Below, in pieces: positions 14,432-33,967 of a stretch of DNA of 64,000 nucleotides. The notes below the pieces were generated by a model. It made no database searches, was not told the DNA's origin, and saw nothing but the letters and a program-made list of their open reading frames with translations. A program made the translations under genes and the position numbers. Numbering within the stretch: the stretch's first letter is position 1; each line of letters begins with the position of its first letter. The stretch is taken from NCBI GenBank assembly GCA_964188305.1, contig OZ076889.1; one strand, written 5' to 3'. Source of the DNA: Podarcis bocagei. Lineage: Eukaryota.

Positions 14432-15274
14432 CAGTGGTGCCTCGCAAGACGAAATTAATTCGTTCCGCAAGTCTCTTCGTCTTGCGAGTTTTTCGTCTTG
14501 CGATGCACGGTTTCCCATAGGAATGCATTGAAAATCAATTAATGCGTTCCTAGGGAAACCGCCTTCAGACCAGGTCCGGGGACAGTCTGTCCCCGGACCT
14601 CTTCTGAAGGCTGGGGGGGGGGGGATAAGGGCTTTTCTTCCCACCCCCAGCATTTTAAAAAACCCCGGGACAGCGGAGGACTTCTCCGCTGTCCGGGCAA
14701 TCTTAAAATGCTGGCGGGCGGCATTTTAAAATCGCCCCGGGACAGCGGAGGACTTCTCCGCTGTCCGGGGCGATTTAAAAGCCCCTGGGAAGGCAGGCAG
14801 GGGGGACAAAGACTTTTGCCCCCCGCCAGCCTTCAGAAGGTGTTCCCGCCCCCCCCGCCCCGCTTCGGAGCACCGTTCCGAAGCGGGGCGGTGGGGGAAG
14901 GTGTTCCCACCCCCCCCGCCCCGCTTCGGAGCACCGTTCCGAAGCGGGGCGGTGGGGGAAGGTGTTCCCACCCCCCCGCCCCGCTTCGGAGCACCGGGAG
15001 AAGCGATCTCCCCGCAGCCCCTTGCTTCAAAAGAGGTCCGGGGGCAGCGGGAAGCGCTTCCCGCTGTCCCCGGACCTGGGGCTGTGGGGAGAAGATCGCT
15101 TCTCCCCGCCGCCCCTTGCTTCAAAAGAGAAGACTCGCTGTCCCCGGGGCAAGCTTCGTTTTGCGAAGCAAGCCCATAGGGAAATTCGTCTTGCGAGGCA
15201 ACTCGAAAACGAAAAAACCTTTCGTTTTGCGAATTTTTCGTCTCGCGAGGCGTTCGTCTTGCGGGGTACCACTG
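14432..15274. mobile_element. Tigger-like (Tc1/mariner) non-autonomous transposon with GC-rich internal repeats
   Basis: TA|cagtggtgcctcgcaagacg ... cgtcttgcggggtaccactg|TA; internal direct and inverted repeats. Confidence 0.85.
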
Positions 15275-15751
15275 TAGTTATTGTTTTATGGGACAGGATG
15301 GGAAATAGTAAATTAGAAGCATCCTGTTGCTCCTAGTGATGTTAACTGTTTCTGAGCTGCTTCTGTGGTGGCTGGAATAGCATCAACAACTCTTAATACC
15401 TCCCCCACCTCCTTAGCCTGTTAGGAAGAGAAGTAGGGTGATCACACAACCTGACGTCTGCCCATCCCTGCCCTAGCTTAGTGGGGATCCTGAATGCAAC
15501 AGTATCGGAACACCCATCAGCTGTCCATAGCTCTCTTACTATCAGAGAACGCTTTAAATGTATTCATGTCCAAATCAATGTGTTATAGTCTAACTGTGTA
15601 CCCATGGAATCAGCTTGTAGACTCAAGTTCTTCCCAGTTGCCACATATACTGGGTTGCACACGTATAACTCTACGACACAGCGGCAATAGCTGCTGTCCA
15701 GCTTTTGATAAATTAAAGTTTGGTTTGTAACATTATTATTAGTTATTTGTA

Positions 15752-15992
15752 CAGTGGTACCTCGGGTTACATACGCTTCAGGTTACATACGCTTCAGGTT
15801 ACAACTCTGCTAACCCAGAAATAGTACCTCGGGTTAAGAACTTTGCTTCAGGATGAGAACAGAAATCGTGCTCCGGCGGTGCGGCAGCAGCAGGAGGCCC
15901 CATTAGCTAAGGTGGTGCTTCAGGTTAAGAACAGTTTTAGGTTAAGAACGGACCTCCGGAACGAATTAAGTACCTAACCCGAGGTAGCACTG
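15752..15992. mobile_element. Tigger-like MITE
   Basis: TA|cagtggtacctcgggtta ... taacccgaggtagcactg|TA. Confidence 0.85.
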
Positions 15993-16164
15993 TATACCGT
16001 ACTTCACCTGTAAATCTCAGGGCGGTTCACAGCATACAAATATAAGATACAAGATAGAAACAAAAAATAAATAATAAAAACAAGAACAAAAAACAAACCA
16101 ATAACCCCTCCCCCTTTAACCTGTATGGTGTACTTGGTAAAAAGTAAATTGAAACCACATTGTA

Positions 16165-16379
16165 CAGTGGTACCTCGGGTTAAGAACTTAATTCGTTCCG
16201 GAGGTCCGTTCTTAACCTGAAACTGTTCTTAACCTGAGGTACCACTTTAGCTAATCGGGCCTCCCGCTGCCACCACACCATTTCTGTTCCCATCCTGAAG
16301 CAAAGTTCTTACCCCGAGGTAATATTTCTGGGTTAGTGGAGTCTGTAACCTGAAGCGTCTGTAACCCGAGGTACCACTG
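16165..16379. mobile_element. Tigger-like MITE, same family as 15752-15992, opposite orientation
   Basis: TA|cagtggtacctcgggtta ... taacccgaggtaccactg|TA. Confidence 0.85.
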
Positions 16380-16643
16380 TATAGTATTAACTAGTGATTG
16401 AAAGGACTGTAACCCACTAAATGCTATATGTCTGAAACATTTCTGCAGTCATCTTTGCCTTCTGTTGATGAGGACCTAATTTTTTGCTATCTACTGCCTG
16501 CATATTGTCTTTTTAAAGTGTTTTTCACAGGGAAACCTAATCCAACTCTGCCCCTTGAGAACTGGGGGTGGATAAAGTAGCAAAGCATACCCAAATGTAT
16601 AATGCTTGCTGATCATCATGAGAGCATATATCTTTTCTTCCAG

Positions 16644-16800
16644 TGTCTTTTCTTGGAATCCTGTGCAAGTGTCCTCTCCAGAATGATTACCAGGAAGAGT
16701 CTTGGGGTTCCTATCCCCTTCCTGCACTTAAAGTCTCAATGGACTGGCTGAAACTTAGACCCAGCGTATTTCAGGAAGCTGTGGTTGATGAAAGACAATA
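16644..16800 (+). CDS. SMG7: SMG7 exon 10 (MSFLGILCKCPLQNDYQEESWGSYPLPALKVSMDWLKLRPSVFQEAVVDERQY)
   Basis: ttccag|TG...TA|gtgagt, 157 bp. Confidence 0.95.
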
Positions 16801-17027
16801 GTGAGTCTTGTGTTTTCATGGGTGTTCCCCCCCCCCCCTATTTGTCATTTGGATGAAATGGTGTACCAATGAAGAATTTGTGAAAGAAGTTGGACATTTG
16901 AATAGGTGCTAGTATAGCAAACTGACATGAGTTTTGAACTGGAAGTCCCTGGTACAAATCTTGTCTCTGCTGTGAACATTCTCCAGTGGTCCTAGGCAAG
17001 CCACCACATTTTACTTGCAACCCTGTA

Positions 17028-17959
17028 CAGTGGTGCCTGGCAAGATGAAATTAATTCGTTCCGCGAGTTTTTTCATCTAGCGAATTTTTCGTCTTGCGAA
17101 GCACGAAATCCCATAGGAATGCATTGAAATTCAATTAATGCGTTCCTATGGTCAAAAAAAGTCCTAACAAAGCCAAATTTGGTACAACAAGAGTTTATTA
17201 AGTGCTCTTTAAAGTCACACATACTGTAAAGAGCATTTCAAAAATTGAAGGAACAATAAATTAAGTTTCTAAACATGACAGAAAAACATTTAAAAATCAA
17301 CAAAGTGTACAGTACATTTTCTAAGACTCTGGGGGACAACTCGAAGAAGGTTCCTCTTCCACTCTTTGCTTCTTGCTGAAGAACCCCCTCAACTGTTCCC
17401 CCAGCCGCCCACCACACAGAAATTCAAATCCAGATTTTTTTTAAAAAAACAGCAGAGTGGCCCAATGGTCACAGAAAATCATAAAAATGCAGGGGGGGGG
17501 GGACACACAAGCTTCCAGATTCTTGCAAACCCCTCCTCAACTGTTCCCCCAGCCACCCACCACACAGAAATTCAAATCCAGATTTTTGTAAAAAAACAGC
17601 AGAGTGGCCCAATGGTCACAGAAAATCATAAAAATGCAGAAAAAACACACACAAGCTTCCAGGTTCTTGCTAACCCCTCCCCAACACCAAGTCCTTGAAT
17701 TCCAAACACCCCAACCCAAAATCCAAAACCCCCCAAAAAAGTTTTAAAAGTTTAACTACCACACCGCATTCTATGAGTTGCTCCTCGAAGTCAAGTCGCA
17801 ACTGTATTAACGGTGTTAAGAAAAAGGAAACAAACTTGCAAGACGTTTTCGATTTTTGTCTTGTGAAGCAAGCCCATAGGGAAATTCGTCTTGCGAAGCA
17901 GCTCAAAAAACGGAAAACCCTTTCGTCTAGCGAGTTTTCCGTCTTGCGGGGCACCAATG
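17028..17959. mobile_element. Tigger-like non-autonomous transposon with ~150-bp internal tandem duplication
   Basis: TA|cagtggtgcc ... cgtcttgcggggcaccaatg|TA; ends resemble 14432-15274; duplicated unit at ~17387-17537 and ~17535-17680. Confidence 0.8.
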
Positions 17960-18053
17960 TATCTGCAATATCTGCAAAACATTTCAGGGTGGTGGTAAGG
18001 ATTACTGAGCCAATGAATACACAGGTTTATAGTAGAAACTTATTTCCTTTGTA

Positions 18054-18319
18054 GGGACGCGGGTGGTGCTGTGAGTTAAACCACAGAGCCTAGGACTTGC
18101 CGATCAGAAGGTTGGCGGTTCGAATCCCCGCAACGGGGTGAGCTCCTGTTGTTCAGTCCCTGCTCCTGCCAACCTAGCAGTGCAAAAGCACGTCAAAGTG
18201 CAAGTAGATAAATAGGTACCGCTCCAGCAGGAAGGTAAACGGCGCTGCTCTGCTTCGCTAGAAGTGGCTTAGTCATGCTGGCCACATGACCCGGAAGCTG
18301 TACGCTGGCTCCCTCGGCC
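18054..18319 (+). mobile_element. Sauria SINE, 3'-truncated
   Basis: gggacgcgggtggtgctg head and B-box; no ACCTTT tail. Confidence 0.85.
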
Positions 18320-18514
18320 TGTGCTGCTGGGTCCAAAACACATTGCTAGCAAATGGGTATGACGCTGGAGACCATGGGTGGGGATGCTTCTGAAAAGCAG
18401 GTAAGATTCAGTGAGCAGTTAGCTTACACAGAACTGAAGGTTGCAGTGATCCCCACCCTTACTGACAACTTCTGTTATAGGCCCAGTTAGCACTCGGAAG
18501 CAGTTACAGAGGAA

Positions 18515-18866
18515 GTAAGGAAGTAAAGGGACCCCTGACCATTAGGTCCAGTCGTGACCGACTCTGGGGTTGCGGCACTCATCTTGCTTTATTGGCCAAG
18601 GGAGCCAGCGTACAGCTTCCAGGTCATGTGGCCAGCATGACTAAGCCGCTTCTGGCAAACCAGAGCAGCGCATGGAAACGCCGTTTACCTTCCCGCCGGA
18701 GCAGTACCTATTTATCTACTTGCACTTTGTGCTTTTGAACTGCTAGGCTGGCAGGAGCAGGGACCGAGCAACGGGAGCTCACCCCATCGCGGGGATTTGA
18801 ACTGCTGACCTTCTGATCGGCAAGTCCTAGGCTCTGTGGTTTAACCCACAGTGCCACCCGCGTCCC
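18515..18866 (-). mobile_element. Sauria SINE
   Basis: Reverse complement of the same subfamily; ends ccacccgcgtccc. Confidence 0.85.
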
Positions 18867-20315
18867 ATTTAAACATTACTAACAGGCAATTTCTGACAAA
18901 CTTTTGATTATTTTCTTTTCAAGTGTCCTCTGAACTGTTGTAGAATTTCAGTCCTTCTCTGGAGGATATTTGGTGAAATGGCCTCCCCAATTTTGCCATG
19001 TGCAAAATTTGGATGCCACTGTGCATCCAGTTGTAATATTTTAATGTCATTGAAGGAAGCAATGGGATTGGCGCCTCCTCCCTCCAGCCCTCTGCTCCTA
19101 GCCCATCGCTTCCTTCATCCACCAGTACAAACAGTAGAGTTTCATACATTAATTAACCTGAAATCTCTGAGTTTTCTGAGAACAACTATTTAGAATTTCC
19201 CATGTGTGCACACAAGTATTGGATTCCCTCCCCCACTGCCTTTTCCACTAGTGCCCACATACAGTGTGGAGAGTTCTGGAAGGCCTTATCATTCAGCTTC
19301 ACTCTTTATCCCGCTCTGAGGGTGCAGTATGCTTTGTAAACATGAGGTTTGGGAAATGCTTTGCAAAGTTAAAGATAAAATAATAAGATTAAAAGATACA
19401 ACCACAAACTTAGCCATTCCAAATCAGCATTATAAAGCAATGACCCAGCTAAAACAATCAAGAATTTTAAAAGCTTGATGTCAAAATGCCATCAACATAG
19501 GTGCCAGGGCTACATAGTTAAAATATTTAGGTGTATACCTTAAAATGTAGAATGTGAATGCAGTGCATGTTTGTAGATACATGCATCATACAGTTGTCGG
19601 GGAGCAATGGCAAGCAGAGGTATGTGTCTGCATAATTTGTGACATGACTAACTATGCATTACCAGTCATATTCTTAAATGAAACAAGAACAACCTCAATT
19701 GGTTTGATGCTGTCCACATCTTGCTTCCAACAGGATCTTCATTAAACCTGGCTTTTGAAACAGCTTTCAGTACTTTTTGACTGTGTAACTTGCAAGTAAA
19801 CAAAGCTATAAACCTTCCAAAGTCAAATTGATATTCTGCAAGAGAGAGTTGCAAAGCCTTCCCATTACAAGATGCTACATTATGTACAGTCATGAGGTCT
19901 GGCAGCAATTACATTTCATTCAGCCCTGTAAAACAGAATTCTTCCACTTGACGCCTGCATGTAACAATCTTTGGTTGTTTTTGTTCAAGGGTTCCATGTG
20001 GTTGCCAGTGTTTGGGCATTCTATAAAATTCTACTAGTGTGTTAATGTTTAGGGCAAATAGTGAGCTGGCACAATCCAGAAAAGTAAATTTGCAAAGGCT
20101 GTTCTTAGTAAGAGGAGATGTAATATGTAACAACAAGGGCACTGTGGGTATTGCAGATAAAATATGGATTTGGAGAAGACCTGATAGGCCGGAAGTGGAG
20201 GTAGCAGAGGCTGTTCAGGCACAGAGGGAAGTGTATCAAAGGAAGGAGTGGGAGAGCTGTGAAAGCAACCATTGGCATATTACACAAATTTAAAGTTGCT
20301 CTTCTTGCCTTGCAG

Positions 20316-21142: not shown

Positions 21143-21433
21143 TGTTTTTGTTTAGTTGTTTAGTCGTGTCCGACTCTTCGTGACCCCATGGAGCAGAGCA
21201 CGCCAGGCACACCTGTCTTCCACTGCCTCCCTCATGCTGGTAGCTTCGAGAACACTGTCCAAACATCTCGTCCTCTGTCGTCCCCTTCTCCTTGTGCCCT
21301 CAATCTTTCTCAACATCAGGGTCTTTTCCAGGGAGTCTTCTCTTCTCATGAGGTGGCCAAAGTACTGGAGCCTCAGCTTCACGATCTGTCCTTCCAGTGA
21401 GCACTCAGGGCTGATTTCCTTAAGAATGGATAC

Positions 21434-22186
21434 TGTCAGGGGTTTAGGTGCAGAGGCACGGGCAAGGGAGGAAACAGAGAGCGAAGGGGAGGAGACAGAG
21501 GAAAGGATGAGTGATGACGACGACCCGAGATCTCCCAGTCTTTCCAGTGAATCAGAGGATTCACAGAAAGGAGCACCAGTGGCCAGGGCAAGAGGGGAGT
21601 CTAGGGAGGCACCCCAGGAAGATAGAGCCAGAGGAGACTCAGGGGGAAGCAGCTGGGAATCGGGACCAGCGTCACCGCCAGGAAGCAGGGAAGAGGAAAG
21701 GACCCAGGGGGGAAGCGCTGGCAGCTCACCACAGGAGGGAGGGCAGGAGTCAGGAGTGGCCACACCTCCATCGGGGAGCGAAGAAACGGTTAAGAGGAAA
21801 GTGGAAGGTTGGGCGCGCGCGCCAAGTTCAAATGCAGAGGAAGGCGGCGCAGTGAGCAGCCCCGAAAGGGAACCAGGTCCTAAAGCCCGGCGCAAGGAGG
21901 CAGAAGGGTCCGGGTCAGCGTCAGAAGAATCCCGGAAGGAAGAAGCCCCAGGGGGTAGAGGGACCCAGAGGAGGACAGTCAGGAGGAAAAGGTGGAGCAA
22001 GGCTAGGATATTAAGTTGGTGCGCACGGGGCGGAGACTCAGACGGAGCCTCGCCGATCTAGCTAGTAGACGTAGAGTTGCAGACAGCAGCGTGAGAATGG
22101 AAACTGTAATTCAATAAAGACTTTTACTTGATGACCGCTGGCTAGCGTGATCCTCTGTGAGCTAGGATCTTGAAGCAGCTCTGACA
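21434..22186 (+). repeat. 5' LTR (753 bp)
   Basis: No difference from 27226-27978 found by eye; TATTAA at 22009-22014, AATAAA at 22113-22118. Confidence 0.96.
22009..22050 (+). promoter_or_regulatory. Predicted LTR core promoter (TATA-like box and initiator) and transcript start near 22040-22041
   Basis: TATTAA lies 31 nt upstream of an Inr-like CTCA|GAC; the start region is complementary to the PBS position. Confidence 0.55.
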
Positions 22187-22188
22187 GT

Positions 22189-22198
22189 AGGCTCCGTC
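22189..22198 (+). promoter_or_regulatory. Primer binding site, self-priming type
   Basis: AGGCTCCGTC is the exact reverse complement of GACGGAGCCT (22041-22050); there is no TGG tRNA-type start after the LTR. Confidence 0.7.
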
Positions 22199-22277: not shown

Positions 22278-23342
22278 ATGACGGCTGAGCAGCAGATAGA
22301 GGACCTCAGAAAAGCAGTGGCACAACTGAACGCCGAGGTTCTCGCATCCAGGAAGAGAGAGGACGAGGCAGCTGCCGCCTGCAGGGATCTCCAGGTCAGG
22401 TTAGACGTACTGGCAAAGCAACCACCCCGGCAGGAGGGAATTGGGTTGGCGAGACGGACAGGCGGGCTGCTCTCTCACTTCGATGGGAACCTGCAACAGT
22501 ATCCCAACTTTAGAGCCGACGTACTGTGCGCACTGCAACTGTTGCATAAAGACTTTAGAGATGAACAGGAGAGAGTGGGGTTCATCATGTCCCATCTGCA
22601 TGGGGAGGCGAAAGCATGGTTGCGCAATTTATGGAGAGATAACGATCCGGCGCTCCAGAATGCGGATGCCTTTATTAAAGCGATGGATGGGTGTTTCTTA
22701 TCAAGTATTGACATTGATCTTGCACGGAAGGAGGTGCATGGGCTGAGACAAGGGAGGGCCAGCGTCAGACAGTATCATGCACGCTTTTTCGCTTTGGTCA
22801 GCGCCCTGGAATGGGACAGAGATTCGGCTCCTGTAAGAGACCTCTTTTGGGAAGGACTGCACAACTCGATTAAAGATGAGATAGCGAGGGGGGAGAGACC
22901 CCGAACCACCCAGGAGGTCGTTCAGAGGGCACTGGCCGTGGGGGTGAGGCTGGAAGGACGTCCGTGGAGCAAGGACGAAGGACGTGGAGGGCGCGAACCA
23001 GCCGGGGGCCCCTCCTTCTTTCCCAGAGAAGCAGCGCGAGCGCAATCCACGCCTCCGCCAGGAGGAGGAGCCGAACCTATGGAGGTTGGAGGTGCAAGGG
23101 CTCAGTCAGCAACCAGAGCCCTAGCACCGGCAGCCGTGCAGGCGAAGCCTCCTAGAGGGACCAGGAAGTGTTACGTCTGTGAGCAGCCAGGACATATGGC
23201 GAAAGAGTGTCCCCAGAGGCCCCACAAGCTTACTGCAGCCTCAGCAATGGTGACTGCAGCAACGCAGCAGGGAGGACCACAGCAGGGAAACGACGATGTC
23301 TGGCTGGAGGAAGAGGCACTGGGGCCCAGCCAGACGTGTTAG
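22278..23342 (+). CDS. gag: Gag (coiled coil, capsid, CCHC nucleocapsid), 354 aa
   Basis: FDGN, LHGEAKAW, LRQGRASVRQY (major homology region-like), EPMEVG, and zinc knuckle CYVCEQPGHMAKEC. Confidence 0.93.
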   Translation: MTAEQQIEDLRKAVAQLNAEVLASRKREDEAAAACRDLQVRLDVLAKQPPRQEGIGLARRTGGLLSHFDGNLQQYPNFRADVLCALQLLHKDFRDEQERVGFIMSHLHGEAKAWLRNLWRDNDPALQNADAFIKAMDGCFLSSIDIDLARKEVHGLRQGRASVRQYHARFFALVSALEWDRDSAPVRDLFWEGLHNSIKDEIARGERPRTTQEVVQRALAVGVRLEGRPWSKDEGRGGREPAGGPSFFPREAARAQSTPPPGGGAEPMEVGGARAQSATRALAPAAVQAKPPRGTRKCYVCEQPGHMAKECPQRPHKLTAASAMVTAATQQGGPQQGNDDVWLEEEALGPSQTC

Positions 23343-26300: not shown

Positions 26301-26908
26301 AGCTCCACGTGGGAGACTGGGTCTGGTTAGCAGCCCACGCAGTGCCGGCCAGGTCGTTGGCCAAGAAGAAACTAGGGCATAAACAACTGGGGCCCTACCA
26401 AGTCGAAGAGCAGGTCAACCCGGTGGCTTTCAGGCTGGCGCTTCCGGAGGGTTCCAGAATGCATCCGGTGTTCCACAGATCGGTGCTCACTCCCTACAAG
26501 GCACCGCACAGGTTCCAGGAACCCGGAACGGCGCCGAGTCCACTCAGAGAAGGAACGGGGCACGCGGGAGTAGCACAGGAGGAGCGCATCAACGAAGTCA
26601 CGGAGATTTTGGACTCCAGATGGGGGGAAGAGGGAGTAGAATACTTTCTCGCCAGGGAGGGCACCCCGGCCAGTGCGAACAGCTGGGTGCCGGGCTACGC
26701 TTTAGACGAACCTCTGCTCAAAGACGAGTTTCATGCCCTCTTCCCACATAGACCTATGCCAGCAGACTTTTTCGACGACTGGCTTTTCACGCCCACGCTT
26801 TCGGACAGCACGTTCAGGGGGTTCGACTCGGACGAGGAACCAACACGAGACGTCCGTTCCCCGGAGGGGTCACCCTCGGGATCTGTCTCAGAACCCTCGT
26901 ATTGGTGA
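23291..26908 (+). CDS. pol: Pol (protease, RT, RNase H, integrase, chromodomain-like), expressed as ~1543-aa Gag-Pol by -1 frameshift
   Basis: IDSGS protease; KLDLRGAY, MPFGL and FLDD in RT; TDAS, ELLAI, TDHKNL and ADALSR in RNase H; HHCC, D-D-E and GPY in integrase; EVTEILDSR...SWVP chromodomain-like region. Confidence 0.95.
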   Translation, partial: RRCLAGGRGTGAQPDVLVTQSPEILQPVNPLPPKPVVRLTASLQLPNGITMDVPITIDSGSNADFIGQEFVDRHAVQLLPATLPLQVVTVDGRELLGGQVVKQTPPMVMRLGNHREVISFNVTQLSDTPIVLGMSWLDKHSPTMAWFQRQLVFGSSFCAEHCIVPRQEGEEEESQLLLGTLQAIPHKYAEFLEVFCEKEADRLPPHRPYDCKIDLLPGAALPKGKLYSMSEDELQELKDFIDHNLERGFIWESKAVGGSPVFFVKKRDTPQKRLVVDYRILNSVTKPSDFPMPRIDDLLAKVRKGKVFTKLDLRGAYNLIRMREGDEWKTAMFTPLGTYEYRVMPFGLQNGAHVFQAFMHHVLAGLLYKTCVCFLDDILIFSESQQEHDKHVKEVLGRLKQHRLYAKLEKCQFDVPEVDFLGYKLSAKGLAMDSAKVRAVLDWKSPRNRKEVQRFVGFANFYRKFIKGFAMQTAAITDTLSSKKKKFIWTEQAEQSFQALKRLFASEEQLLHVNPSMPMRVETDASDRAVGAVLLQKDPQGVWRPGAFYSRKLSKSEQNYTIWDRELLAIHAAFKAWRHFLIGAKHTVQVCTDHKNLEHWRTAQFLNQRQIRWAEFFADFDFRIEYVPGDTNIMADALSRKPQYLEDATPAAAMHIFAPTVWACAAATVDLEAVRRALQGDSFAQTKMAEVRGGKAAADGFQLRDGLLIRKGAIYVPGDELRAKVLQQLHDAPTAGHFGKEKTVELVARDFWWPGMRGEVADYVARCDTCQRAKPVHKPPAGLLEPLQTPVEPWERVALDFVTDLPSSRGKTAVLVVVDLFSKMAHFIPCAKVATAEQTAKLFIDHVFKVHGLPRSILSDRGRQFISNFWQKLMGFLNVKINLASARHPQTNGQAERANAIMQQYLRCYANQQPATWVDYLPLAEFAYNNTKHVSTGVTPFFANNGRHPRTFPGLECRGEGEPQSADAFASELQEVHDQLRRHLELAKHAYKVQADKHRRVGEELHVGDWVWLAAHAVPARSLAKKKLGHKQLGPYQVEEQVNPVAFRLALPEGSRMHPVFHRSVLTPYKAPHRFQEPGTAPSPLREGTGHAGVAQEERINEVTEILDSRWGEEGVEYFLAREGTPASANSWVPGYALDEPLLKDEFHALFPHRPMPADFFDDWLFTPTLSDSTFRGFDSDEEPTRDVRSPEGSPSGSVSEPSYW

Positions 26909-27853
26909 GACGATAGGCCGGAGGAGCAGTTCCGCAGGAAGTGGCTGGACTGTTCCGGCCGAGCAACGCCGCCTGGAGGAAGTGCGGGAGAGACGGACAT
27001 GGACATTTTCGGGGACGACCCTGGTTTCGAGCACGGCGGCACAGAGATGGAAGAGGAGGTGACTGTCGTCAACGAGAGCAGAGAGGAAGACCTGGAAGAG
27101 TTCCGCTGGAGGCCTGCCACGGGAAGCGACCGATATCCGACGTTCGTCCCTTTGCAACAGCAGCCCCCAGCTCCAGCACCGGAAGGAGGGGAGGGGGGAC
27201 TGGGGGGCTTCGAGGGGGGGATGGATGTCAGGGGTTTAGGTGCAGAGGCACGGGCAAGGGAGGAAACAGAGAGCGAAGGGGAGGAGACAGAGGAAAGGAT
27301 GAGTGATGACGACGACCCGAGATCTCCCAGTCTTTCCAGTGAATCAGAGGATTCACAGAAAGGAGCACCAGTGGCCAGGGCAAGAGGGGAGTCTAGGGAG
27401 GCACCCCAGGAAGATAGAGCCAGAGGAGACTCAGGGGGAAGCAGCTGGGAATCGGGACCAGCGTCACCGCCAGGAAGCAGGGAAGAGGAAAGGACCCAGG
27501 GGGGAAGCGCTGGCAGCTCACCACAGGAGGGAGGGCAGGAGTCAGGAGTGGCCACACCTCCATCGGGGAGCGAAGAAACGGTTAAGAGGAAAGTGGAAGG
27601 TTGGGCGCGCGCGCCAAGTTCAAATGCAGAGGAAGGCGGCGCAGTGAGCAGCCCCGAAAGGGAACCAGGTCCTAAAGCCCGGCGCAAGGAGGCAGAAGGG
27701 TCCGGGTCAGCGTCAGAAGAATCCCGGAAGGAAGAAGCCCCAGGGGGTAGAGGGACCCAGAGGAGGACAGTCAGGAGGAAAAGGTGGAGCAAGGCTAGGA
27801 TATTAAGTTGGTGCGCACGGGGCGGAGACTCAGACGGAGCCTCGCCGATCTAG
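26909..27853 (+). CDS. In-frame continuation of pol / ORF3 spanning PPT and U3 (314 codons; first ATG at 26999 gives 284 aa), acidic low-complexity protein with a basic cluster
   Basis: Same frame as pol, separated by one TGA (26906-26908); ends at TAG 27851-27853, 51 nt before AATAAA. Confidence 0.45.
   Translation, partial: DDRPEEQFRRKWLDCSGRATPPGGSAGETDMDIFGDDPGFEHGGTEMEEEVTVVNESREEDLEEFRWRPATGSDRYPTFVPLQQQPPAPAPEGGEGGLGGFEGGMDVRGLGAEARAREETESEGEETEERMSDDDDPRSPSLSSESEDSQKGAPVARARGESREAPQEDRARGDSGGSSWESGPASPPGSREEERTQGGSAGSSPQEGGQESGVATPPSGSEETVKRKVEGWARAPSSNAEEGGAVSSPEREPGPKARRKEAEGSGSASEESRKEEAPGGRGTQRRTVRRKRWSKARILSWCARGGDSDGASPI
27212..27225 (+). promoter_or_regulatory. Polypurine tract
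   Basis: gagggggggatgga directly before the 3' LTR TG. Confidence 0.85.
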
Positions 27854-27978
27854 CTAGTAGACGTAGAGTTGCAGACAGCAGCGTGAGAATGGAAACTGTA
27901 ATTCAATAAAGACTTTTACTTGATGACCGCTGGCTAGCGTGATCCTCTGTGAGCTAGGATCTTGAAGCAGCTCTGACA
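27226..27978 (+). repeat. 3' LTR (753 bp)
   Basis: Copy of 21434-22186; AATAAA at 27905-27910. Confidence 0.96.
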
Positions 27979-28478
27979 GATACGTTTGATCTTCTTGCAG
28001 TCCATGGGACTCTCAAGAGTCTCCTCCAGCACCAGAATTCAAAAGCATCAATTCTTCGGCGATCAGCCTTCTTTTTGGTCCAGCTCTCACTTCCATACAT
28101 CACTACTCAGAAAACCATAGCTTTAACTATACGGACCCTTGTCAGCAAGGTGATGTCTCTGCTTTTTAAGATGCTGTCTAGGTTTGTCATCGCTTTTCTC
28201 CCCAAGGAGCAGGTGTCTCTTGATTTCGTGACTGCTGTCACCATCTGCAGTAATCTTGGAGCCCAGGAAAGTAAAATCTCTTACTGCCTCCATTTCTTCC
28301 CCTTCTATTTGCCAGGAGGTGATGGGCCCAGTGCCCATGATCTTAGTTTTTTTGATGTTGAGCTTCAGACCATATTTTGCTGTCTCTCTTTTCAACCTTA
28401 TTAAGAGGTTCTTTAATTCCTCCTCAGTTTCTGCTATCAAAGTTGTGTCATCTGCATATCAGAGGTTGTTGATATTTC

Positions 28479-28883
28479 TGTTGGGATACTGCTGGGGAGA
28501 TGGGGGCATCAGGCAGGCCCCCAGCTGGCTCCAGCCTTGCTAGCAGCCGGGCGATCTCCAGTACAGCATCAATCAGTGACACGAGCCTCAGATAGGTTTA
28601 GAGACTCGGCATGCTCTTATCAGCAGAGTGAATAAATCTTCTCACAGTGGAAGAGGCAGACAAAGTCATGTGTAAGCATTATTTACAAGCGTTTATTCAG
28701 CATAGTTCAGCAACAAAGGAAAAACATGTCTGCTTCCCTTCGTGTCCAAGCACAACAGCATCAACACAAAAGCAATATACAAACGGAAGTTCCCAGCAAG
28801 CCTGTGCTGGAAGTAAACAGGCATGTGACACACAACAGTCATGCCTGTTCCCTTTTAAGGTAGAACGGAACTATATCCTAACA
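28479..28883 (-). mobile_element. Solo LTR of a second, unrelated family (405 bp) inserted in Bov-B
   Basis: TGTTGGGATA...TATCCTAACA (9/10 inverted repeat); flanks atttc/gtttc (4/5 TSD match); removing it rejoins Bov-B IAGRN|INNL. Orientation is tentative, from a minus-strand AATAAA at 28692-28697. Confidence 0.75.
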
Positions 28884-29837
28884 GTTTCTTCCGGCAATCT
28901 TAATTCCGGTTTGGGATTCATCCAATCCAGTCTTTCGCATGATGAATTCTGCATATAAGTTAAATAAGCAGGGAGACAAAATACAGCCTTGTCGTACTCC
29001 TTTCCCAATTTTGAACCAATCAGTTGTTCCATATCCAGTTCTAACTGTAGCTTCTTGTCCCACATAGAGATTTCTCAGGAGACAGATGAGGTGATCAAGC
29101 ACTCCCATTTCTTTAAGAACTTGCCATAGTTTGCTGTGGTCGACACAGTCAAAGGCTTTTGCATAGTCAATGAAGCAGAAGTAGATGTCTTTCTGGAACT
29201 CTCTAGCTTTCTCTGAAATCCAGTGCATGTTTGCAATTTGGTCTCTGGTTCCTCTGCCCCTTCGAAATCCAGCTTGCACTTCTGGGAGTTCTCGGTCCAC
29301 ATACTGCTTAGGCCTGCCTTGTAGAATTTTAAGCATAACCTTGCTAGCGTGTGAAATGAGTGCAATTGTGCGGTAGTTGGAGCATTCTTTGGCACTGCCC
29401 TTCTTTGGGATTGGAATGTAGACTGATCTTCTCCAATCCTCTGGCCACTGCTGAGTTTTCCAAACTTGCTGGCATATTGAGTGTAGCACCTTAACAGCAC
29501 CATCTTTTAAAATTTTAAATAGTTCAGCTGGGATGTCATCACTTCCACTGGCCTTGTTATTAGCAGTGCTTTGTAAGGCCCATTTGACTTCACTCAAGGT
29601 CTGGCTCAAGGTCAGCAACCACACTACCTGGGGTGTATGAGACATCCATATCTTTCTGGTATAATTCCTCTGTGTATTCTTGCCACCTCTTCTTGATGTC
29701 TTCTGCTTCTGTTAGGTCCTTACCACTTTTGTTCTTTATTATGGTAATCTTTGCACAAAATGTTCCTTTCATAGCTCTAATTTTCTTGAACAGATCTCTG
29801 GTTTTTCCCATTTTATTGTTTTCCTCTATTTCTTTGC

Positions 29838-33595: not shown

Positions 33596-33967
33596 GGGAC
33601 GCGGGTGGCGCTGGGACGCGGGTGGCGCTGTGGGTAAAACCTCAGCGCCTAGGACTTGCCGATTGCATGGTCGGCGGTTTGAATCTCTGCGCCGGGGTGC
33701 GCTCCCGTCGTTCGGTCCCAGCGCCTGCCAACCTAGCAGTTTGAAAGCACCCCCGGGTGCAAGTAGATAAATAGGGACCGCTTACCAGCGGGAAGGTAAA
33801 CGGCGTTCCGTGTGCTGCGCTGGCTCGCCAGATGCAGCTTGTTACGCTGGCCACGTGACCCGGAAGTGTCTGCGGACAGCGCTGGCTCCCGGCCTATAGA
33901 GTGAGATGAGCGCACAACCCTAGAGTCTGTCAAGACTGGCCCATACGGGCAGGGGTACCTTTACCTT
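33596..33967 (+). mobile_element. Sauria SINE with duplicated 5' 17-mer
   Basis: TSD tactatattac at 33585-33595 and 33968-33978; (ACCTTT) tail. Confidence 0.9.

Follow-up and report, generated by a model that had tools for sequence, protein, structure and literature searches.

In the Ty3/Gypsy retrotransposon analysed here, the pol reading frame continues through the polypurine tract (PPT) and the whole U3 of the 3' LTR, evolves there as protein under purifying selection, and is broken by a TGA only in the copy carried by the window, i.e., the whole 64-kb stretch of DNA under study. Taken together with a predicted tail of about 370 residues, which would act in import or tethering and would bias insertion towards chromosome ends, this is the reading considered probable here. 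The clade to which the element belongs has accumulated at telomeres and subtelomeres through independent young insertions, and, if the proposed targeting is true, it represents a vertebrate LTR retrotransposon homing to telomeres and subtelomeres that now accounts for a third of the DNA at the ends of these lizard chromosomes.

The element and its surroundings

Among the Ty3/Gypsy chromoviruses, the family is a young one of the Tf1/sushi type, with lacertid lizards as hosts, its reverse transcriptase (RT) tree being built from copies of this genome only. The TG..CA ends of the LTRs, the target site duplication (TSD), the presence of gag and the pol order protease, RT, RNase H and integrase (PR-RT-RH-IN) are those of Ty3/Gypsy elements. 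The window copy has two identical LTRs of 753 bp each on the plus strand (5' LTR, 21434-22186; 3' LTR, 27226-27978), with the 5-bp TSD GATAC on both sides (21429-21433 on the left, 27979-27983 on the right). Between them lie, on the same strand as all of the features that follow, gag (22278-23342; 354 aa, with a Ty3 capsid and a zinc knuckle) and pol, which runs from 23183 to the private stop at 26908 and encodes the protease, RT, RNase H and an integrase with H2C2, rve and SH3 domains. A candidate -1 frameshift heptamer (23285-23291), located where gag and pol overlap and with a predicted stem-loop (fold -22.7 kcal/mol) after it, is present in 7/7 other copies checked, and this slippery heptamer, combined with the pol frame of the other copies, would give a Gag-Pol of about 1858 codons. 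One element (L034, G000:C9:2045135-2053004) has gag and pol fused in a single frame of 1889 codons, its relatives having the -1 overlap.

The C-terminal chromodomain of the integrase, as found in Tf1/sushi elements, is present in a degenerate form (26594-26734), given that the comparison with HP1 produced an E value of 0.0022, the Pfam Chromo match remained below the cut-off (E 0.065), and the three aromatic residues of the HP1 type I cage align to non-aromatic residues in the window clade. Past the stop codon (TGA, 26906-26908), the continuation of pol (26909-27853) would form a tail of the integrase that is acidic and rich in Ser and Gly, contains short conserved motifs and has at its C-terminus a basic motif with Trp, and a Pfam search of this tail matched no family. 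The continuation takes in the PPT (27212-27225), which is in frame with pol, and all 606 nt of the U3 (27226-27831), including a TATA-like site at about 27800-27807, and ends within the segment made up of R and U5 (27832-27978), where the RNA start (27832), the TAG (27851-27853) and the AATAAA signal (27905-27910) are found.

The element interrupts a decayed LINE that has frames resembling RT (window 21152-21433, 27979-28458 and 28878-29711), which we take to be RTE/BovB-like, and further pieces are located nearby. MITE-like short elements with long terminal inverted repeats are located at 15750-16381 and 18054-18867 of the window, and partial relatives of these elements at 15155-17961 and 33613-33782.

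Continuation of pol past a private stop

As the first-pass annotation had described, 314 codons are open after the pol TGA (26909-27850), up to the TAG. This frame crosses the PPT/att junction at 27226, takes in 208 codons of the 3' LTR, and contains both an ATG at 26999 and a basic cluster, while its TAG is located 51 nt upstream from the AATAAA at 27905 and just inside R, 19 nt from its start, given that the RNA begins at 27832. The annotation had also warned that a T-poor LTR would favor open frames, which holds, as T makes up 10% of the U3, and it had suggested a composition-preserving shuffle. The outcome of this shuffle was divided. The whole frame is rarely open by chance (7/5000 dinucleotide shuffles for the same frame, and 22/5000 for any plus frame), but the LTR part alone, helped by its composition, is only modestly unusual, being open in 55/5000 shuffles in the same frame and in 160/5000 in any plus frame. 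The low T content and the last of these counts are what would favor a chance origin of the open frame in an LTR poor in T and rich in purines. This reading was nevertheless rejected, given that the shuffles of the full frame, the dN/dS values, the codon-position bias and the stop counts presented below, together with the length changes that preserve the frame across LTRs of 61-97% identity, leave it next to no probability.

Two explanations had been offered for the stop itself, either a recent nonsense change within a family encoding a Gag-Pol of about 1860 aa, the integrase of which ends in a long tail, or the existence of a separate ORF3. A first search scored 40 matches among 2243 candidates, and 30 of these were fetched, including the window's own copy. 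The codon at 26906-26908 is a sense codon in all 29 of the other copies aligned, 28 of which are open through to 27851. When the tail was used as the query of a protein search, 126 matches were scored of 19,532 candidates, and among these the 314-aa frame was found in the window copy only, with 125/125 others being longer (1541-1556 aa in 112 of them, counted from the listing). Given that the codon in question lies outside the tail query, the ranking of this search did not select for a sense codon. The TGA is thus a break private to the window copy, and the other copies have a single frame that extends from the protease to 19 nt inside R, as the first explanation supposed. The proposed route to the stop through a CpG change (CGA to TGA) is ruled out, however, since what sets the window apart from all 29 other copies is base 26908, the third of the codon.

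The second explanation, in which the 314 codons would form an ORF3 reached by readthrough, by reinitiation at the ATG at 26999 or by splicing, in a manner similar to nef or sag, has become superfluous and was rejected, given that the stop is seen in no other copy examined and that pol runs into the frame without interruption in all of these copies, rather than the frame having a start of its own and a spliced or internal RNA. The frame does follow a TGA in the window copy, the ATG is found in most close subfamilies, a donor-like sequence is present 3' of the 5' LTR, and the depth of the sense RNA climbs over the tail. Yet this methionine is absent in P0004 and P0006, RNA support was obtained for 0/15 of the joints listed, of 185 in all, and the rise in depth fits 3'-biased libraries and solo LTRs, which leaves a separate gene of this type highly unlikely.

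Selection on the U3 as protein

The U3 evolves as protein in the pol frame, under purifying selection, and the tail is almost certainly coding. The LTR set was composed of 40 chosen stretches plus the window, which resulted in 60 LTR rows (one LTR entered twice) with identities down to 61%, and dN/dS was calculated pairwise between natural copies from nucleotide alignments. Despite the varying length of the U3, 41/60 rows stop 53-57 nt before the AATAAA. Across 10 pairs that include all 20 two-LTR elements, considering only the differences common to both LTRs, the U3 dN/dS was 0.38 in the pol frame, while the two remaining sense frames had 1.50 and 0.97, which is the signature that had been predicted for a selected product. 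In these same pairs, the substitutions at codon positions 1/2/3 numbered 117/119/226. Stop gains or losses in the U3 numbered 1 in the pol frame versus 16 and 36 in the others. Similar values were obtained from 11 non-overlapping pairs picked for open frames (0.42 versus 1.19 and 1.04 in the other frames), and the stretch of these pairs that lies outside the search query had a dN/dS of 0.45.

The differences that arose after insertion, i.e., those between the two LTRs of one element, had a dN/dS of 0.85, with 52/36/43 changes at the three codon positions, and 3/12 of the post-insertion indels were multiples of three. Among the 15 calls of indels shared by both LTRs, which are non-independent, 11 were multiples of three and the other four are one compensating +2/+1 pair, in line with the check on U3 indels that the first-pass annotation had proposed.

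Along the polyprotein, dN/dS forms a gradient from 0.19 in the RT-RH region through 0.22 in the integrase core, 0.27 in the chromodomain and 0.37 in the internal part of the tail to 0.39 in the U3. The selection on the tail is weak (about 0.4) and could have a compositional cause. In one of the 20 two-LTR elements (L049), an identical U3 stop occurs in both LTRs, so that this element moved without the full tail in cis. Part of the conserved C-terminal motif coincides with the TATA-like site and the self-primer, and some of the conservation is therefore at the DNA level.

Selection might instead have acted on the antisense frame, which shares the wobble position, or on mere openness, e.g., through the avoidance of a long 3' UTR. 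An antisense frame of 372 codons (26731-27849) is also open in the window copy, with a dN/dS of 0.54, and the stop is always near the poly(A) signal, both of which speak for this alternative. However, antisense stops are present in L040, L046 (both LTRs), L047 (both LTRs) and L048, where the sense frame is open, for which reason the antisense ORF was rejected, and this frame also has no early Met. Stop avoidance alone would not produce a dN/dS of 0.38, and the termination of gag already leaves a 3' UTR of 4.6 kb, so that either form of this alternative is most improbable.

RNA start and self-priming

The RNA evidence was obtained from the raw reads of two single-cell RNA runs of one sample. 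The adapter-tagged reads starting at 27832 numbered 46 and 34 in the two runs, with the sequence directly before this position being, presumably, the template-switch adapter; they come from many subfamilies, and are evidence of transcription, not of translation. Weaker adapter ends at 27252 and 27819, beside G runs, may be artefacts. The start at 27832 places the whole of 27226-27831 in the U3 and the TAG in R, and implies that the full-length genomic RNA would include the 3' U3, while the 5' U3, being upstream from the RNA start, would act only as a promoter.

The site that follows the 5' LTR (22189-22198) is not a tRNA primer-binding site (PBS). Its complement, 10-13 bases long and in four covarying versions, is found about 140 nt before the end of the LTR in 26/32 rows. 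The PBS is complementary to the first 11 nt or so of the RNA, an arrangement that agrees with the self-priming of the Tf1/sushi elements, as described in the accessible text of PMC6317226.

The tail and the chromodomain in related families

Hydrophobic residues make up 9-12% of the tail, and its short motifs vary little or not at all among 11 diverged copies. An AlphaFold2 model based on an 11-row alignment had a mean pLDDT of 37.6 and left the chromodomain itself unresolved. For this reason, the model is uninformative on the order or disorder of the tail.

The frame also passes through the PPT in the sister clade (67-70% RT identity, LTRs of 411-444 bp), where it stops at LTR nt 299-332 in 9/10 of the LTRs checked and ends in a similar basic, Trp-containing motif, with a U3 dN/dS of 0.56 versus 1.26 and 1.45 in the other frames. 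A further young family, L161-L163, has 54% RT identity and an intact cage, and its frame extends about 115 codons into the LTR (3 copies). This family is a chromovirus with a single ORF of 1564 aa, the LTR-encoded tail of which ends in an Arg-rich motif that, we assume, resembles the nucleosome acidic-patch binders. The cage is also intact in the older elements L114 and L115, in which the frame stops directly after the chromodomain. The idea that a tail is found only once the cage has been lost was rejected, since L161-L163 have both a tail and an intact cage. Three lacertid lineages of the Tf1/sushi type have the layout, which may thus represent a trait of the group that has been overlooked. 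One ENA record (P0012) has a more distant integrase with an acidic tail, a PPT/att-like junction peptide and a terminal basic motif. The protein searches matched only Podarcis records and contigs, and, as they were length- and word-limited, absence from other vertebrates is not implied.

Enrichment at chromosome ends

The counts at the chromosome ends refer to the best-scoring hits, not to all copies, on the contigs other than C19 and the unplaced ones. On this basis, 35/114 hits of the window family and 39/98 hits of the sister subfamilies are found less than 1 Mb from the end of a chromosome-scale contig, where 2.6% would be expected. The corresponding counts in the controls were 3/35 for other SH3_Tf2 elements, 3/52 for Copia and 7/121 for the young intact-cage chromovirus (L161 family; Fisher 4e-7). 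At least 100 telomeric hexamers are present in 31 of the 40 terminal 10-kb segments, and the clade is found in 28 of the 40, where it covers 132,497 of 400,000 terminal bases (33%). The distant tailed sister clade covers 160 bases of these segments and the intact-cage family 0, and the genome-wide coverage of the young subfamilies is roughly 0.4%.

Both ends of at least seven chromosomes are occupied, beside telomeric arrays, and CRM-like centromere targeting is not favored, given the copies found next to these arrays at both ends of many chromosomes. Several copies are located within telomeric arrays, but only 12/1824 LTR ends directly abut them, which indicates a bias towards a region rather than towards a sequence. 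Nesting, in copies of the family or in a shared subtelomeric repeat, affects many of the end-proximal copies. Parsing was possible for 16 of the 17 end-proximal copies fetched, of which 14 have identical LTRs; the 16 have 16 different TSDs, so that an origin of the end clusters by segmental duplication was rejected for these copies. About two thirds of the copies are dispersed, and the window's own copy is 2.6 Mb from the contig end.

Some other repeats were observed in these regions. The flanks of L164, L168, L170 and L175-L178 contain a diverged repeat that is common to several subtelomeres (70-90% identity) and into which the element has been inserted repeatedly. Satellite arrays of 186/362-bp and 501-bp units were found in L142 (end of C2) and L147 (end of C7), at contig ends without long telomeric arrays, and are centromere candidates. 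Contig C19 of G000 (96.5 Mb) has a large share of the hits for every LTR family searched, many of them identical and with shared stops, and has the appearance of a repeat-rich W chromosome with amplified blocks.

A possible role of the tail

By analogy with the CRM group A, Ty5 and Ty1 elements, the integrase tail likely represents a nuclear-import and chromatin-tethering arm through which insertion would be biased to the chromosome ends. The -1 frameshifting would yield a Gag-Pol of about 1858 aa, the tail would remain on the mature integrase, mostly disordered and displaying its short motifs, and these motifs, perhaps together with the altered chromodomain, would dock onto a protein associated with telomeres or subtelomeres. 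A motif found in the window clade immediately past the chromodomain looks like a TRFH docking motif. When a host gene with a TRFH domain was searched for, one match was returned (E 0.42), which contains a stop.

The different parts of this proposal are not equally likely. The tail probably carries import or tethering motifs, and integration targeting is the somewhat likelier cause of the end bias. It is doubtful, on the other hand, that the U3-encoded part is the targeting determinant, and it can be suggested only tentatively that an element without a cage docks on telomeric chromatin via the motifs of its integrase tail, for which its own promoter DNA largely codes. What links the tail to the end bias is correlative and comes from one genome. 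The L161-L163 family has an LTR-encoded tail and is not end-biased, and the tailed sister clade is nearly absent from the terminal segments, so that such a tail is insufficient for the bias. The altered chromodomain, or the motifs specific to the clade that come right after it, could just as well be the determinant.

The existence of tailed families without an end bias is also in line with an alternative to which somewhat less than an even chance is given here, i.e., that the tail is a real protein with a general role, such as nuclear import, acidic chaperoning of nucleic acids or histones, or particle assembly, and that the pile-up at the ends arises otherwise, through the altered chromodomain, nesting into earlier copies or the tolerance of subtelomeres to insertion. 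The many nested end-proximal copies are compatible with such an origin, and the dN/dS of 0.4 and the low hydrophobicity of the tail fit a compositional constraint. However, the Copia and chromovirus controls are equally young and are not piled up at the ends, which argues against mere tolerance, and the near-invariance of the short motifs between diverged copies also stands against a purely general role. For the targeting arm, which is the reading preferred here, the families with and without a tail, and with the cage intact or lost, constitute natural controls within one genome and, if the targeting is real, it bears on the build-up and turnover of lizard chromosome ends.

Whatever the role of the tail, the whole U3 promoter, including the TATA-like site and the self-primer, doubles as selected coding sequence. 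Given this, the LTRs of such elements should not be treated as non-coding, and the solo LTRs carry a ready-made frame of 200 codons.

Comparison with known systems

The U3 is overlapped by coding sequence in HIV (nef), MMTV (sag) and the foamy viruses (bel2), in which separate accessory genes are expressed from spliced or internal RNAs. The lizard element is similar in that the coding extends over the U3, but differs in that its frame is continuous with pol. As precedents, which is how the first-pass annotation had cited them, these genes fit in their overlap with the U3 and not in being separate genes, and the CRM group A of plants, as presented in the accessible text of PMC3059260, is closer.

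A polyprotein that reaches into the 3' LTR is already known from plants. The CRM group A polyprotein extends into this LTR, and the LTR-encoded end of the integrase is described as a putative targeting domain in the available portion of PMC3059260. The lizard element shares with this group the chromovirus organization, the extension of the polyprotein into the 3' LTR and a localized chromosomal distribution (PMC3059260). In CRM group A, however, a CR motif replaces the chromodomain and the distribution is centromeric (PMC3059260), whereas the lizard element retains a cage-less chromodomain remnant followed by about 370 residues, in which no Pfam family and no CR motif were recognized. Its frame spans the whole promoter region up to R, it has a self-primer rather than a tRNA-Met primer-binding site, its host is a vertebrate, and its bias is to both ends of the chromosomes.

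The order PR-RT-RH-IN, the SH3 and chromodomain after the integrase core, the self-priming PBS, the TGT..ACA ends and the AATAAA near the LTR's 3' end are all shared with the Tf1/sushi elements, as described in the accessible parts of PMC6317226 and PMC3601003, while the absence of the cage residues sets the window clade apart. A coding U3 is not mentioned in these parts of the two papers, and the terms "ORF" and "reading frame" have 0 occurrences in that of PMC3601003. The literature searched, outside the scope of which were the subscription journals, repeat databases and supplements, contained no account of a U3 that is coding throughout in a self-priming chromovirus of a vertebrate or of an end-biased vertebrate LTR element, and the available text of a centromere atlas preprint (10.64898/2026.09.17.752431) does not mention lizards.

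Finally, short C-terminal integrase motifs are described for Ty5, in which one tethers integration to the silent chromatin near the telomeres via Sir4, and for Ty1, in which it lies inside a bipartite NLS (PMC4700185 and PMC7459421, in the text accessible). Both are copia-type elements with an internal integrase end, according to these same texts, whereas this end is LTR-encoded in the lizard element, and about 90% of the new Ty5 insertions are targeted (PMC4700185, PMC7459421), versus about a third of the copies of the lizard family found at the ends. The end bias of this family thus offers a testable vertebrate counterpart to the targeting of Ty5 and CRM.
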